Sequence record: PQ850593.1
DNA from: Escherichia phage AidaStucki_Bas93
Reading direction: 5' to 3' (one strand)
Length of the DNA stretch: 64,000 nt
The translations under genes and the position numbers were made by a program. The number at the start of each line of letters is the position of its first letter. Within the stretch, counting starts at the first letter, position 1. The notes under the pieces were generated by a model. The model was not told the origin of the DNA and made no database searches. It was given only the letters and a program-made list of their open reading frames with translations. Of the stretch, positions 30,310-40,575 are shown in pieces.

Positions 30310-30803
30310 TTAGTGTGTATGCATCCAATTTAACCCAATCTGACAATCAGAAGCCAGAGGACATTCCATGTTCAAGTACTCACCAGCCTTCTTAACACAA
30401 AGCTCGGTGTACTCTTTGAGTTTCTGTACATCATTACGGTTCACTGAGAACTGGCCCTCATCGTGCATATCAATTACCTTAGCACAACGAACTCCATCTT
30501 TCTCAATCCACTTGTTAAGGAACATCATAGCATATTTCATAACAACAGCACCAGCACATTGCAGGAGTGTGTTAAGGGCTTTATGAACCATAACCTTACC
30601 AGTGGCATCCCGTCTCATTGTAATCTTACGACCATCAACGCCAATCAAATACCCTTGAGCAGCTTTCTCTGTCATACGATCAATGAGGATTGCAATACAT
30701 GGGTTCTCTGCCAAGAAGCGTGCTCGCATCACTGAACCTTCGTCAGCTCCACCACCTACGATTGAACCAAGTTTAGCATCACCAGCACCATAGTTAAACG
30801 CAT
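30310..30803 (-). CDS. DNA polymerase (family A, T7-like), 3' exon; 5' boundary is approximate
   Basis: Translates to ...NYGAGDAKLGSIVGG...GVDGRKITMR...ALNTLLQCAG...MHDEGQF...NWMHTH, in line with the T7 gp5 C-terminus; the frame is open upstream of the track start to a TGA at 30805-30807. Confidence 0.6.
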
Positions 30804-31509
30804 CTCATATATTCGACAAGAGCCGCAACACTCTCGCCCGTTCTCTTATGAACTGCTACATGTCGCCATGTAGGATAGACTATATCATCACCCTCTATCG
30901 AGGGGTTGGGCGCTTCCACCGGCATTAGCTTCCGGCGTACTCCTTTCGGATAGTCGTTGCACCTTCAAGTATTCTATAGCTGTTTCTAATCGGCTAACAT
31001 CATCTTTCAATAGCCCTAAAGCTCTGTTGCAGTTGTGACACAACAGACCGCGTATTACTCCGGATTCATGGCAATGATCAACCACAAGTTTAATTCTGTG
31101 ATGTGTTGCCATTACAAACCCTTCGCCCTTACAGATAGCACACTTCCCATCCTGATCAGCGTACATCTTTTCGTAATCGCTGGCTGTGATTCCATAAATT
31201 CGTTTGAAGTAGGAATTTCTCCAGCCCCTATCTTTGCATTCATCAGAGCAATAATGTTCAGATGGTGCATTTGGTTGAAAATCTTTTGAGCAATTACGAC
31301 AAGGTTTTGGATTGAACCGACCTTGAGGGTATTTACTTGCCTCAGCAGTCTGTTCTTCTTTAGTTTTAGTTACAGTTGTATATTCCATAAGCACCTCCAT
31401 GTTGAGTTGCTATAGAATACTTGCTTGGCTCAGGATTGTCTACTAGAGAGTTTCCCTGAGTTCACCCAATTTAATCGACGAGATTACTCTCGAAGTATCC
31501 ATTTACGTC
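30804..31509 (-). mobile_element. putative group I intron in the DNA polymerase gene, carrying an HNH homing endonuclease ORF
   Basis: About 700 nt interrupt the polymerase frame inside motif B (KTFI | YAFNYGAG); upstream exon ends in U, insertion begins with in-frame UGA, candidate guide GGAUA can pair with exon UAUCU, last base is G. Confidence 0.5.
30888..31400 (-). CDS. intron-encoded HNH homing endonuclease
   Basis: HNH core DGKCAICKGEGFVMATHHRIKLVVDHCHESGVIRGLLCHNCNRALG. Confidence 0.7.
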   Translation of the reverse strand: MEVLMEYTTVTKTKEEQTAEASKYPQGRFNPKPCRNCSKDFQPNAPSEHYCSDECKDRGWRNSYFKRIYGITASDYEKMYADQDGKCAICKGEGFVMATHHRIKLVVDHCHESGVIRGLLCHNCNRALGLLKDDVSRLETAIEYLKVQRLSERSTPEANAGGSAQPLDRG

Positions 31510-32860
31510 AGATAAACGTTTTAGCGTTGTCACGAGTAGGAAGACCAGCAAGTTTCTGGTTGTGGGAGTGGATATCACCTTCAAGAAGGATATCACGATA
31601 CATAATAGCAGAAGCTAAACCACGTTCTGCCAGAGCTTTCTTAGCTGGATTATTCTCTTCGATTGCTTCAGCAAGCATATCCCTACACTCTTTAATGAGG
31701 TAGTGAGCGAGCATACGAAGTTCAAGTCCAGAACCATCATACCCTAAGAATACTTCTTTACCAGCGGGTATGTAATATTTGTAAGCACCTACAGGCTTAT
31801 CTTTCTTCCCCGGCTTACCTTTCTCGTAAATTACGTTAGTACCTTTTCGTATATAACAACCATCAGGAACAACGTTAGTAATAACGAAAGGACGAGAGTG
31901 ATCACTGTCTGAATTATAGTCAGACTCAAACAAACTGCGACACTCATGACCAAACAAACCACGAGAGGGAATATTAACCACGATACGATGTTTGAATCGA
32001 AAAGTTGGCGTAGCGCAGCTGTTAGCTTCTGCCGAAAGTTTACCATCTTCGCGTTCCTTTGCTATGAGTCCACTGATAAGACCTAGCCTGTGAGCCGCTA
32101 CAACGCGCCTCTTAAGCAAACTTCCAACACTCCCTAGCTCGCCCCCTAACCCTTCTTCAAGAGTCTCCTCGAGGTTTGTAGGAGCTGTAGGCCACTTGTT
32201 TGAGGTAGCTAGTGCTATCTTAATCTCATCAAACGTGATAGGTCTACGTCGGTTAGGGTTTAAACCTAAACCAAACACATAAGCCTTCATATAGTTCTTA
32301 GTCTTAAACCTAAAATGCTTCTCTAAGAACCTCCTAATATCTGCGTCAACCATCTCGGCTGTCTGCTTCTGTTTAGCATTACCTCGCATCCAAGCTGAAT
32401 ACCACGCTTGGTATGTTCCATACTTTCGTATATCTTTCTTGATTTCAAAAGTATTCCAAGGTTTCTTTGATACGTTAAACTCTGGAGGAAGAAAACCCTC
32501 ATCCATAAGGGCTTCTTTAACTCGTGCATCTTTCGATGGGTCAAAGTCCACGTATTCAACACAGGTGAATGCTCCACCAATGTCTTCTCTCTTAAGGCCA
32601 ACTCTATCACAATAGGCTTGAGGCCACTTCTGTAAAGCTCCAGACTTCTTAAATGGCTTCATATAAGTAGAGCCATCTAATCTCATCTTAGGTAAGAGAG
32701 GGATCAGTTCTTTGTCGATATTAACAATAATCTCTTTAAGGAGGTGAACATACCACCGAGCATTTCTTCGGTTGAAACTCACTCCGTGCTTCGCTTGCTT
32801 AGAGATTATATCAGCGACAGTCATCTCTGTCAAAAATGGGAGAGCGTCCGGGTTGCTCAC
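31510..32860 (-). CDS. DNA polymerase (family A, T7-like), 5' exon with motif A
   Basis: Motif A LGYDGSGLELRMLAHY and pre-motif-B LEGDIHSHNQKLAGLPTRDNAKTFI; ends at TGA immediately after KTFI. Confidence 0.75.
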
Positions 32861-32876
32861 TTTATACTCCTTTAAA

Positions 32877-38762: not shown

Positions 38763-38771
38763 TCTTATTCC

Positions 38772-40019
38772 TTAGTTGTTTGTTTCTATGTCAAAAGAGA
38801 ATCCACGACCCGCTTCATCGGCAAACCGAGCTGTATGGGTTTGAGGCTCTAATACTTCAGGGTTGTTAGCAATAAAGCGAGCGGCGAGATTATCTTCCAC
38901 ATCTTGACTAGAGGGCTGACGTGCGCTAACAGTTAAACCATTTGGTCGACCATTAGAACGTCTAGACAACCACTGCTCAAATGAATCACTAGTAACACCA
39001 AGAGCCTCTTCAAAAGATGTTCTACGAGTAGGGCTTACTCTTCGTGACTCTTGTGCTCGACGCATTGCAGGGGCTACAAACACCCCTTCAATTGCATTAT
39101 GTCGATTAGGTTCATCTTCCCGACCAAGGAGATCACCTCCTGCATTAGTTGTTAAGTTTGTCAACCCTTCAGACCAATACGCACGAATCTGGCTAGAGCC
39201 ATAAATGCTTGACATTAACTGAATCTCTTCATAAGGTATATCAAAGAATCGACTCATATCTCGGTTAACACAATACTGAGCACTTGTTGTATCCTCAATA
39301 AGAGCAACCTGACCCCGTTCGTTGACCAGATGACTAACCGGCTGAGGTGTGGGAAGGTGTCGAGTTTGGGCCATGTATTGATATGCAGCTGCTGGAGAGG
39401 AAAATCTCAACACTTGCGAGTTAGGCCACTTCTTGTGAACATACCTGATTTCACGACTAGAAACAACCACTGGACAAGGGGCGGTCATAGCCAAGTATCC
39501 ATGAGGGGTCATGAATAAGTTATCAAGAGTCATCGCACCACGGCACATCATAGGAAAATTATCCAATACCTCTTCAATAGAAGTAGGATAATTAAACATG
39601 AATTGGATACGAACACCATTCCACTGAAACTCAATAATATCAGTGAATGTTAATTGAGAACCCCCAGCATATGATTCGTTCGTAGCTTCAACAAGAAGAG
39701 ATGAATACTCAATATCTTGTGATTCAAGCCATTCCTTCACATTACTTTCAATCTCCCGTCCAAGCATTTGCCACTGCTCGGCTGGGATAAAGGTATTTCG
39801 AGTTCTTGGTGTTTGTCCTCTGACAATAAAGATATCAATGTCATGTGGAGCTATGTTATTAAGAACAGCATCACGAATAGCTCCACCAGTAATGATAGGG
39901 CAAATACCATCTGGAATCAAGTTGTTGTTAATCAACTGTTCAATGAAGTGACGACCAACAGTGATATCAGGTTGTTGAGCAACCTTATCTTCAATTCGGT
40001 TAATCGGGATAACAATCAT
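38772..40019 (-). CDS. nucleotidyltransferase-superfamily protein (CCA-adding / poly(A) polymerase-like head motif)
   Basis: ITGGAIRDAVLNNIAPHDIDIFIV fits the GG.(V/I)RD...D.D signature; ATG at 40019 sits 2 nt after the exonuclease stop. Confidence 0.45.
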   Translation of the reverse strand: MIVIPINRIEDKVAQQPDITVGRHFIEQLINNNLIPDGICPIITGGAIRDAVLNNIAPHDIDIFIVRGQTPRTRNTFIPAEQWQMLGREIESNVKEWLESQDIEYSSLLVEATNESYAGGSQLTFTDIIEFQWNGVRIQFMFNYPTSIEEVLDNFPMMCRGAMTLDNLFMTPHGYLAMTAPCPVVVSSREIRYVHKKWPNSQVLRFSSPAAAYQYMAQTRHLPTPQPVSHLVNERGQVALIEDTTSAQYCVNRDMSRFFDIPYEEIQLMSSIYGSSQIRAYWSEGLTNLTTNAGGDLLGREDEPNRHNAIEGVFVAPAMRRAQESRRVSPTRRTSFEEALGVTSDSFEQWLSRRSNGRPNGLTVSARQPSSQDVEDNLAARFIANNPEVLEPQTHTARFADEAGRGFSFDIETNN

Positions 40020-40020
40020 T

Positions 40021-40575
40021 TTACATTTTCCAATATAATGAAGGTGGGTCGTAAGGATCAAATCCTGTGAGTTCACACAAGTATTTATAAACCTTAACAG
40101 TTAAGTTAACGTCCTGTTCACAGTAAGTAAACATATCTTCAGTGAAAGCATCCCATGCTTCCTCTTGCTCACCGTAATCTCCTTTAAGTTCCCCCAAGAA
40201 CTCACCCCATTGCTTCAAACCGTGACCTCTTGGGCCATGTCTAGGGTCGCCTTTCGGATACTCAGGACTGTCACCAATACGATCAGGTTTAAGATATCGA
40301 CTAAGACACAGAGTGTCGAAGACGTTAAAATGATATTTAATCAGATTGGGATATATTTTCTTCAGAGCACAAAGGTCGAAGTCAATAATGTTATGGCCCA
40401 CGAGCACATCAGCTTCTGTAAGTTTACGAATCCCATCTTCAATTTGGTGAGGCCGGTAGCCCCACCTTTCACCAGTTTCAACATCGAAAATGTAAATACA
40501 CCATACTTTAGTTATATCATCGTACAGTGCGTTACTTTCGATATCAAATGCAAACACTTTCTTTTTCTTTACCAC
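40021..40575 (-). CDS. 3'-5' proofreading exonuclease (T7 DNA polymerase exonuclease-domain homologue, separately encoded)
   Basis: Exo I FAFDIESN, Exo [15 protein letters not shown], Exo III YCEQDV; collinear with the T7 gp5 N-terminal domain. Confidence 0.75.

Follow-up and report, generated by a model that had tools for sequence, protein, structure and literature searches.

The DNA polymerase of Escherichia phage AidaStucki_Bas93 was analyzed in a 64,000-nucleotide (nt) stretch of its genome (sequence record PQ850593.1), hereafter the window. The polymerase is of the T7 type, with its 3'-5' exonuclease and polymerase domains encoded by separate genes about 7 kilobases (kb) apart. This had been claimed in a first-pass annotation made from the sequence alone and is borne out by sequence, profile and fold matches. 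Very probably, a T7-type replicase is encoded here in pieces (a proofreading exonuclease, a polymerase split by an intron, and a 5'-3' exonuclease) that derive from one fissioned gene 5 and whose parts reassemble. The exonuclease gene, both polymerase exons, the intron, the intervening genes and the helicase gene all lie on the minus strand. The split arrangement is already known and adds no new biology: it is annotated in GenBank for the nearest relatives and has been published for the phage group, the separation of exonuclease and polymerase being stated as common to all Kuravirus-like phages (PMC9965538, 2023).

The proofreading exonuclease subunit, 184 amino acids (aa) of the DEDDy type, is encoded at 40021-40575 (minus strand). 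It matches Pfam family PF01612 (DNA_pol_A_exo1; E 2.8e-9, 37.5 bits with a cut-off of 23.6) and the PHROG families phrog_38876 (E 2.9e-75) and phrog_403 (E 7e-38), described as "DNA polymerase exonuclease subunit". Among PDB sequences (E<=10) it finds T7 gp5 chains only, residues 9-163 aligning to T7 3-182 at E 2e-11; by BLASTP, residues 7-180 align to T7 gp5 1-196 with 32% identity (E 2e-17). The catalytic residues D11 and E13 (Exo I), D67 (Exo II), and Y151 and D155 (Exo III) correspond to T7 D5 and E7, D65, and Y170 and D174, and the Exo III motif has the form YxxxD (DEDDy), as in polymerases. These five residues are invariant in 43 aligned stand-alone homologues, down to 34% identity. The coordinates, the Exo I-III motifs and the collinearity with T7 gp5 given in the first-pass annotation are upheld by the Pfam, PDB and BLASTP matches.

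For the first-pass annotation, a greater similarity to DnaQ-type or other stand-alone exonucleases would have spoken against its reading, and the comparison points the other way. T7 gp5 is the sole PDB sequence match, and with an AlphaFold2 (AF2) model of the exonuclease (predicted local distance difference test score, pLDDT, 92.8) the 27 best fold matches in the PDB are all T7 gp5 (E 1e-10 to 1e-8). Next in the ranking come exonuclease domains from other polymerases; diDNase/NrnC, a TREX1 homologue and RNase T are matched only at E values of at least 1.7e-5. No Pfam match to DnaQ/RNase T-type exonuclease families was obtained at E<=0.01. The 184-aa exonuclease thus resembles the exonuclease domains of polymerases far more than it does stand-alone DEDD exonucleases. 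Its separation from the polymerase is the rule among its own homologues: in a search of 5.8 billion clustered proteins, 50 of 50 were stand-alone, with lengths of 105-212 aa.

The polymerase lies at 30310-32860 (minus strand), limits that include an intron. Exon 1 (31510-32860), identified by translation, hhalign and its motifs, holds codons 1-450 and the first base of codon 451; exon 2 (30310-30803) completes codon 451 with the two remaining bases, runs on through codon 614 to the stop, and matches PF00476 (E 1.6e-16) and T7 gp5 490-698 (E 3e-33). Removal of the intron gives a 1,845-nt coding sequence (CDS) and a 614-aa product. The outer limits in the first-pass annotation stand, T7 gp5 being the best match by sequence, profile and fold; its single open reading frame (ORF) does not, because a group I intron carrying an endonuclease had been overlooked.

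Among PDB sequences (phmmer), the polymerase matches T7 gp5 at E 3e-33 and Klenow at 4e-6. A profile of 56 sequences of the polymerase family gives, in hhalign, an alignment that spans all of T7 gp5 (probability 100%, E 3.6e-75), and in it the window-type protein begins near T7 residue 205. The AF2 model of a 99%-identical homologue (P0051; pLDDT 91.5) matches T7 gp5 in Foldseek at E 1.7e-25, as compared with about 1e-15 for Pol I-type enzymes. Exon 1 alone has no PF00476 match; its 450 N-terminal aa are too divergent and too rich in insertions for Pfam, so profile and fold comparison was needed. The closest homologues are 600-618 aa long and have no exonuclease domain. Homologues the size of exon 1 (437-460 aa) are common in databases and resemble exon 1 products.

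Exon 1 encodes the thumb, a 40-aa equivalent of the thioredoxin-binding domain, motif A (DGSGLELR, with D375 equivalent to T7 D475) and the first half of motif B, ending in ...RDNAKTFI. Exon 2 encodes the rest of motif B (Y451, equivalent to T7 Y526, then YGAG) and an intact motif C (H564, D565, E566). Motif B, RDNAKTFIYAFNYG, with R443, K447 and Y451 at the positions of T7 R518, K522 and Y526, is complete only once the intron is removed; the spliced motif reads RDNAKTFIYAFNYGAG as compared with RDNAKTFIYGFLYGAG in T7 (TFIYAFNYGAG versus TFIYGFLYGAG). Three insertions relative to T7 gp5, at residues 126-228, 312-372 and 386-420 (window about 31600-32485, minus strand), are ordered: the first (73-103 aa) is helical, the second (about 57-61 aa) is rich in beta structure, and the third (35 aa) is found mainly in Kuravirus-like polymerases and their closest relatives. 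The large insertions co-occur with the split state and are absent from T7 gp5 and from the closest fused relatives (P0159-P0169). Possibly they serve for docking of the exonuclease or of other replisome partners.

The 706-nt intron (30804-31509, minus strand) was identified from its exact absence from phage Bas92, from a match to the group I intron model RF00028 that stays below the gathering score, and from the restored reading frame. Mechanical ORF calling shows a 450-aa ORF (31508-32860) that ends in ...PTRDNAKTFI and a stop, followed by a 170-aa endonuclease VII ORF (30888-31400); upstream of its first start codon, the C-terminal polymerase frame reads, after a stop, ...DAFNYGAGDAKLG... 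The Bas92 polymerase gene (99.3% identical) is uninterrupted and encodes 614 aa. Aligned to it, the window has exactly 706 extra bases, ...ACGTTTATCT/GACGTAAAT...ATATGAG/ATGCGTTTAAC... (slashes mark junctions), where Bas92 has ATCT/ACGCG; the window junctions are thus ...ATCT/GACG... and ...ATGAG/ATGCG... The insertion splits the Tyr451 codon of motif B (Tyr526 in T7) after its first base. In T7, this tyrosine governs discrimination against dideoxynucleotides.

The features expected of a group I intron are present. U is the last base of the 5' exon and G the last base of the intron, and, as read from the sequence, exon UAUCU can pair with an internal guide GGAUA, placing a U-G pair at the splice site. 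The alignment to RF00028 covers the whole model (1-253) with a 434-nt insert in P6; it scores 35.8 bits (E 2.5e-7, local search of 901 nt), short of the gathering score. A perfect 12-bp stem, P6a, closes a loop that holds most of the endonuclease ORF, the 3' end of which overlaps the ribozyme core. A 292-nt mini-intron in which this loop is replaced by GAAA folds at -96.2 kcal/mol, with z = -4.8 relative to simple (mononucleotide) shuffles. The homing endonuclease is of the endonuclease VII/HNH type (30888-31388, minus strand; 166 aa from the ATG that follows GGAGG, or 170 aa from the ATG at 31400), with matches to PF02945 (Endonuclease_7, E 1.5e-23) and to phrog_307, 2914 and 2633 ("endonuclease VII"), in agreement with the annotation of Bas94_0039. 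In unspliced RNA, an in-frame stop is formed at the junction (ATC T/GA) right after ...TFI, and the first start codon of exon 2 comes only 24 codons beyond the junction. An active enzyme would therefore depend on splicing. The alternative of a free-standing endonuclease flanked by two polymerase fragments, each translated on its own, was rejected, since the boundaries and the ribozyme core fit a group I intron; furthermore, exon 2 alone would lose YAFNYGAG of motif B. The polymerase gene thus appears to carry a mobile group I intron, predicted to be self-splicing. In the GenBank record of Bas94, the polymerase CDS is given as a join with "endonuclease VII" inside. Within a collection of 50,697 phage records, a near-identical motif B intron was found in Bas94 only; Bas92, LAMP and most Kuraviruses do not have it.

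The exonuclease and the polymerase together tile T7 gp5: the exonuclease accounts for T7 1-196 and the polymerase for gp5 from about T7 205 onward, so that the break falls in the interdomain linker. In PHROG profile 17, positions 668-826 are matched by the exonuclease and 836-1233 by the polymerase. A fused relative of 618 aa (P0165) is collinear with both halves, its residues 5-154 matching the exonuclease (36% identity, E 1e-31) and 168-618 the polymerase (43%, E 4e-91), which looks like gene fission at the interdomain linker. The two main parts would then descend from one T7-like gene 5, broken in the linker near T7 residue 200, and the size of the gap between them would have diverged between lineages afterwards. 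The first-pass annotation had proposed that gene order be compared in related genomes, and there the split order recurs. The order helicase, exonuclease, spacer, polymerase is also found in Bas92 and Bas94, and in PaP3 with a 1.66-kb spacer. In Pantoea phage TacPo2 the spacer would be about 2.4 kb if an unannotated 561-aa gene is the polymerase, an assignment from size only. Two metagenomic relatives have spacers of about 6.5 kb and more than 10 kb. T7 itself carries genes 4, 5 and 6 in that order. The window order of helicase, exonuclease, polymerase and 5'-3' exonuclease mirrors these genes.

Two other accounts of the separated genes can be set against common descent and reassembly. Independent acquisition of the exonuclease and polymerase genes is highly improbable, as is a rejoining of their products through a split intein, trans-splicing or recoding. 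Nothing specific favors this, beyond the homing endonucleases and mosaicism that are common in the region, and it is opposed by the collinearity of one fused relative with both halves at similar divergence and by the parallel with T7 genes 4, 5 and 6. A split intein with protein trans-splicing was ruled out, as T7 1-196 and T7 from about 205 leave no residues for intein halves. A programmed frameshift that would join the exonuclease to the following ORF, or a fusion of the two, suggested by an apparent 56-nt overlap, was also ruled out because the true start of that ORF is the ATG at 40019. An assembly artefact or pseudogene can be discarded as well, the arrangement being present in more than 100 related phage genomes. 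The other account, that the 184-aa exonuclease acts alone (in host DNA degradation, recombination or repair), that the polymerase works without proofreading and that the two genes are uncoupled remnants, is improbable, if less so than independent acquisition. It would fit the 7-kb, 17-gene distance between the two genes and the coupling of the exonuclease gene to the helicase gene and not to the polymerase gene. It is at odds with the nearest relatives of the exonuclease, which are polymerase-embedded domains and not free DEDD nucleases, and with the co-occurrence of the two genes in every relative examined; further exonuclease and polymerase homologues pair up by the identical length of their longest contigs, and so apparently share contigs. 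In addition, the stability of family A polymerases reportedly depends on the exonuclease domain, and reassembly has been predicted in another split lineage (PMC10201439).

The favored reading, a gp5-like enzyme reassembled from separately encoded parts, would work as follows. The DEDDy exonuclease subunit would be translated together with the helicase. The polymerase would be produced from a gene 7.16 kb downstream on the same strand, beyond 17 genes, several of them for nucleotide metabolism; its mRNA would be spliced to take out the 706-nt intron, and the 614-aa subunit would be made. The exonuclease and polymerase would bind each other non-covalently over the surface at which both domains meet in gp5. 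The product would be a proofreading polymerase like gp5, and this reassembled replicase would work with the gp4-like helicase. The 5'-3' exonuclease would come from yet another gene, the third, in parallel with gp6 of T7. We infer reassembly because the two parts tile T7 gp5 exactly, because the catalytic residues are invariant and because AlphaFold2 predicts for split S-SBP1-like PolAs that the exonuclease and polymerase products reassemble, the complex superposing on a fused relative (PMC10201439). Three points weigh against this reading. The 7-kb separation would allow different levels or timing of expression of the two parts. The insertions of the split clade, missing in T7 and in the fused relatives, mean that the assembly may differ from that of gp5. 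Finally, the RF00028 score of the intron is below the gathering score of 50, so that a scan of the whole window at gathering thresholds missed it; the 434-nt ORF insert in P6 costs score and lowers the match.

The phage also encodes a thioredoxin-like protein at 36539-36814 (minus strand), which the first-pass annotation had recognized and Pfam confirms (PF00085, E 3.5e-13). This mini-thioredoxin of 91 aa aligns only to E. coli thioredoxin 24-107 (E 4.3e-9) and is without about the first 20 residues of TrxA (the beta1-alpha1 unit). Its active site is CAPC, as compared with the canonical C-G-P-C, and a SIP motif aligns to the cis-Pro76 region of the E. coli protein. Homologues (E<=1e-6) were found in 114 phage records, named for Escherichia, Shigella, Proteus, Cronobacter, Salmonella or simply "phage", with Kuravirus-, GAP52- and Privateer-like phages among those listed; none of the 114 is a Pseudomonas phage. 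On the polymerase, the thioredoxin-binding-domain equivalent comprises residues 57-96, 40 aa versus about 76 in T7, and is modelled by AF2 as a compact folded unit (pLDDT about 88-91). Among the 56 aligned clade members it never falls outside 37-42 aa, the polymerases of Pseudomonas bruynogheviruses included. Across the cluster 5 PolAs, the thioredoxin-binding domain is at least 50 aa long in about 29% of members (PMC10201439).

T7 itself fails to grow on E. coli without trxA. One proposal, raised in outline in the first-pass annotation and published as a hypothesis for phage Privateer, is that the mini-thioredoxin is a dedicated third subunit that binds polymerase residues 57-96 and replaces host TrxA as processivity factor; coupling of thioredoxin with a T7-like polymerase for processivity has been proposed in phages of the C3 morphotype, every one of which, among those studied, keeps a thioredoxin (PMC7881722, PeerJ 2021). 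In favor are the T7-type polymerase, whose insertion at the position of the thioredoxin-binding domain partly aligns to the C-terminal half of that domain, and the intact CxxC of the phage protein. Furthermore, no ribonucleotide reductase is present in the window or annotated in the genome of the near-identical Bas94, so that the phage encodes no obvious client for the thioredoxin. On the other side, the element is compact and about half the length of its T7 counterpart, and keeps that length even in the Pseudomonas phage polymerases, a host group absent from the thioredoxin records. The gene for the thioredoxin belongs to a block of nucleotide-metabolism genes, immediately ahead of thyX, and in a relative its homologue sits between dcd and nrdD/nrdG. 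No complex with thioredoxin was predicted by AlphaFold2 for another split T7-like PolA, one in which the binding domain is also halved (PMC10201439). This circumstantial evidence leans against the phage protein replacing host thioredoxin as processivity factor, and we regard that role as unlikely. A fuller version is slightly more doubtful still: a three-gene holoenzyme in Gordonclarkvirinae and their C3 relatives, made of exonuclease, polymerase and a mini-thioredoxin that would clamp the half-length element and free the phage from its need for host TrxA, with insertions 126-228 and 312-372 as docking surfaces that compensate for the lost covalent link.

A role of the mini-thioredoxin unrelated to the polymerase, as a redox helper in the supply of deoxynucleoside triphosphates (as reductant of ribonucleotide reductase or of another client), is more likely than the processivity role, with roughly an even chance of being correct. 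The reductase would be that of the host in the window phage and phage NrdD in the relatives. Thioredoxins are the classical reductants of ribonucleotide reductase, as exemplified by T4 NrdC. The gene shares the spacer with those for Dcd, ThyX and PhoH, besides its place next to thyX. In relatives about 50% identical, nrdD, an HNH gene and nrdG lie inside the exonuclease-polymerase spacer (L012 11926-15862; L011 12887-16331). In L012, the order is dcd, mini-thioredoxin, two small ORFs, nrdD, HNH, nrdG, the mini-thioredoxin being 38% identical to that of the window and having the same YSDxCAPCK motif. Against the redox role, L011 has nrdD/nrdG and no thioredoxin in the 20 kb examined, the window's own phage group has no annotated ribonucleotide reductase, and the mini-thioredoxin is without the N-terminal beta-alpha unit of the canonical protein.

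The helicase gene (40569-42359, minus strand) encodes a T7 gp4-like DNA primase/helicase of 596 aa, as judged from DnaB_C (E 9.9e-11), a weak Toprim_2 match and the annotation of Bas94. Its stop overlaps the GTG start of the exonuclease (GTGGTAA), which suggests that the two are translationally coupled. The C-terminus of the helicase (40569-40640, minus strand) is an acidic tail with a terminal aromatic residue. In T7, gp4 has an acidic tail at its C-terminus, with Phe as the last residue, that docks onto basic patches on gp5, among them the thioredoxin-binding domain. The 40-aa element of the window polymerase is rich in Lys and Arg and, by analogy, might serve for docking of the helicase instead of binding thioredoxin. 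On the far side of the polymerase, a 289-aa ORF (24298-25167, minus strand) encodes a T7 gp6/FEN-like 5'-3' exonuclease (PF02739, E 6.3e-6, which is below the curated cut-off). This 5'-3' exonuclease-like ORF is a third activity associated with family A polymerases that has its own gene. An "exonuclease" (Bas94_0025) also lies downstream of the Bas94 polymerase gene; the window is not collinear with Bas94 in this stretch. Separate 5'-3' and 3'-5' exonuclease subunits have been described in the Kuravirus-like group (PMC9965538).

The spacer between the exonuclease stop and the polymerase start (32861-40020, minus strand) measures 7,160 nt and was delimited and annotated from its ORFs and from Pfam and PHROG matches. 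It holds 17 genes, a count taken from the annotation of the collinear Bas92. The "seven or more" intervening genes of the first-pass annotation was thus too low a figure, although its identifications (nucleotidyltransferase, Dcd, Dps-like protein, thioredoxin, ThyX and PhoH) are confirmed by Pfam and PHROG. The nucleotidyltransferase (38772-40019, minus strand; about 415 aa) matches phrog_12715 and has no Pfam match. Its probable start, the ATG at 40019, lies one nt past the exonuclease stop, and the PHROG profile begins at Met20 of the ORF; the 56-nt overlap with the exonuclease is spurious because the mechanical ORF call took the earliest start, a GTG at 40076. In Aeromonas phage MQM1, a gene of the PolyA_pol superfamily lies just downstream of the DNA polymerase gene. 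The other identified genes, all on the minus strand, are those for Dcd (38229-38762; PF22769, E 3.6e-34), a ferritin/Dps-like DNA-binding protein (37061-37672; PF00210, E 3.2e-7), ThyX (35867-36523; PF02511, E 8.9e-44), a stand-alone LigA Ia-domain protein of 118 aa (35508-35864; PF22745, E 2.5e-35) and PhoH (34361-35104; PF02562, E 1.6e-56). The 118-aa protein is labelled "DNA ligase" in Bas92 and Bas94 and holds only the NAD+-binding Ia domain; without adenylation and OB domains it cannot be a ligase by itself. Judged by its gene content in the window and in relatives, the spacer behaves as a variable nucleotide-metabolism cassette.

Elsewhere in the window, a tRNA-like element (54617-54695, minus strand) with a 20-nt insertion after the anticodon arm scores 29.7 bits with the Rfam tRNA model (gathering score 29). 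This borderline element was the only match of the whole-window Rfam scan at gathering thresholds. ARAGORN found no tRNA in the whole window, including this site.

The phage is a Kuravirus-like podophage of E. coli (Gordonclarkvirinae, phiEco32 group) and falls in the Kuravirus clade of 67-69 kb described in the BASEL paper (PMC11990801). By megablast, its nearest relatives in the polymerase region are ManiMatter_Bas94 (99.6% identity), JacquesWildberger_Bas92 (99.3%) and LAMP (99.3%). Over the region 28000-43000 the identity is 98.9% with Bas94 and 98.1% with LAMP. More than 100 further Kuravirus-like phages of E. coli, Shigella and Yersinia match at 90-96%. The window agrees with Bas94 and differs from Bas92 in having the polymerase intron. 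The opposite is true of the spacer at about 37600-38230, between dcd and the Dps-like gene, where the window agrees with Bas92 and does not have the HNH gene Bas94_0052 and the small ORFs Bas94_0055 and 0056. This patchwork of Bas92 and Bas94 states is a case of mosaicism linked to homing endonucleases.

If taken up experimentally, this E. coli phage with its naturally split T7-type polymerase would be a handy system to study how a family A polymerase works together with a proofreading domain to which it has no covalent link. It would also suit asking whether the mutation rate depends on how strongly each part is expressed, and whether a phage-encoded thioredoxin can be a processivity factor. 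For annotation, the lesson is that with a polymerase spread, as here, over three coding pieces plus an intron, naive ORF calling gives a "truncated" polymerase.

Among known systems, the Kuravirus/Gordonclarkvirinae phages (phiEco32, YF01, LAMP, Bas92, Bas94, SGF2) are the closest, with 95-99.6% identity across the polymerase region and 98-99% across the 15-kb region. They share the gene order and the thioredoxin, and in GenBank their exonuclease is labelled "DNA polymerase exonuclease subunit". The closest solved structure for both parts is T7 gene 5 polymerase with E. coli thioredoxin (PDB 1T7P, 6N7W). T7 gp5 is alike in its DEDDy exonuclease motifs, its motifs A, B and C, the motif B tyrosine, and the gp4-like helicase and separate 5'-3' exonuclease encoded nearby. 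T7 gp5 is one chain of 704 aa, whereas the window has two of 184 and 614 aa. In the cluster 5/cd08643 family, the exonuclease is fused N-terminally in the same polypeptide; in the window it is on a separate gene 7,160 nt upstream, a known split variant.

The intron resembles those of other phage polymerase genes (phiI/W31, Pf-WMP3, SPO1/SP82, Vi06 and MQM1) in a core that aligns, below the gathering score, to RF00028, in its HNH endonuclease and in the choice of a conserved catalytic motif as insertion site. In the IA2 introns of phiI/W31 and Pf-WMP3, the endonuclease ORF is in the P6a loop, as in the window; the polymerase intron sites given in the same study are E. coli positions 674, 676 and 881, and the motif B site of the window is not among them (PMC3428280). 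A related intron occupies the identical site in Aeromonas phage MQM1 (L009, about 2490-2800), where the junction is ACGTTTATCT/ATGCGTTT, the 5' part of the ribozyme is clearly similar and the polymerase gene is annotated as a single joined CDS. The intron of the Teseptimavirus Salmonella phage Vi06 (L008 1764-2440) is 5 nt upstream of the window's site, and Kuraviruses of the PE006 type (in PE006 itself, L010 2062-2637) carry a different homing-endonuclease insertion, near motif C. Set against the other phage polymerase introns, the endonuclease of the window belongs to the endonuclease VII (PF02945) branch.

A polymerase and a proofreading exonuclease that are separate polypeptides and act as one enzyme are familiar from the alpha and epsilon subunits of E. 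coli Pol III. For split polymerase and exonuclease, an analogy with archaeal PolD (DP1-DP2) has been drawn (PMC10201439). Both are functional analogies only, as the polymerase families are unrelated and the window exonuclease is not of the epsilon/DnaQ type. The Bruynoghevirus PaP3 is a nearer parallel: its primase/helicase gene overlaps, at its end, a stand-alone exonuclease gene, with an exonuclease-less polymerase gene further downstream, as in the window. The split is noted in GenBank for PaP3 too, under the labels "DNA polymerase1" and "DNA polymerse2" (AY078382), and related records have "DNA polymerase part II". Bruynoghevirus polymerases are 39-42% identical to that of the window, with a 38-aa thioredoxin-binding-domain equivalent and the same kinds of insertion; PaP3 differs in its 1.66-kb spacer, which holds six small ORFs, and in its polymerase of 545 aa. 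The PolA of S-SBP1-like cyanopodoviruses (Czernecki et al., NAR 2023, PMC10201439) is also a T7-like cluster 5 enzyme with split exonuclease and polymerase and a binding domain that is about halved. The S-SBP1-like genes, however, are adjacent and overlapping as the result of a recent +1 frameshift (PMC10201439), whereas those of the window are separated by 7.16 kb and 17 genes.

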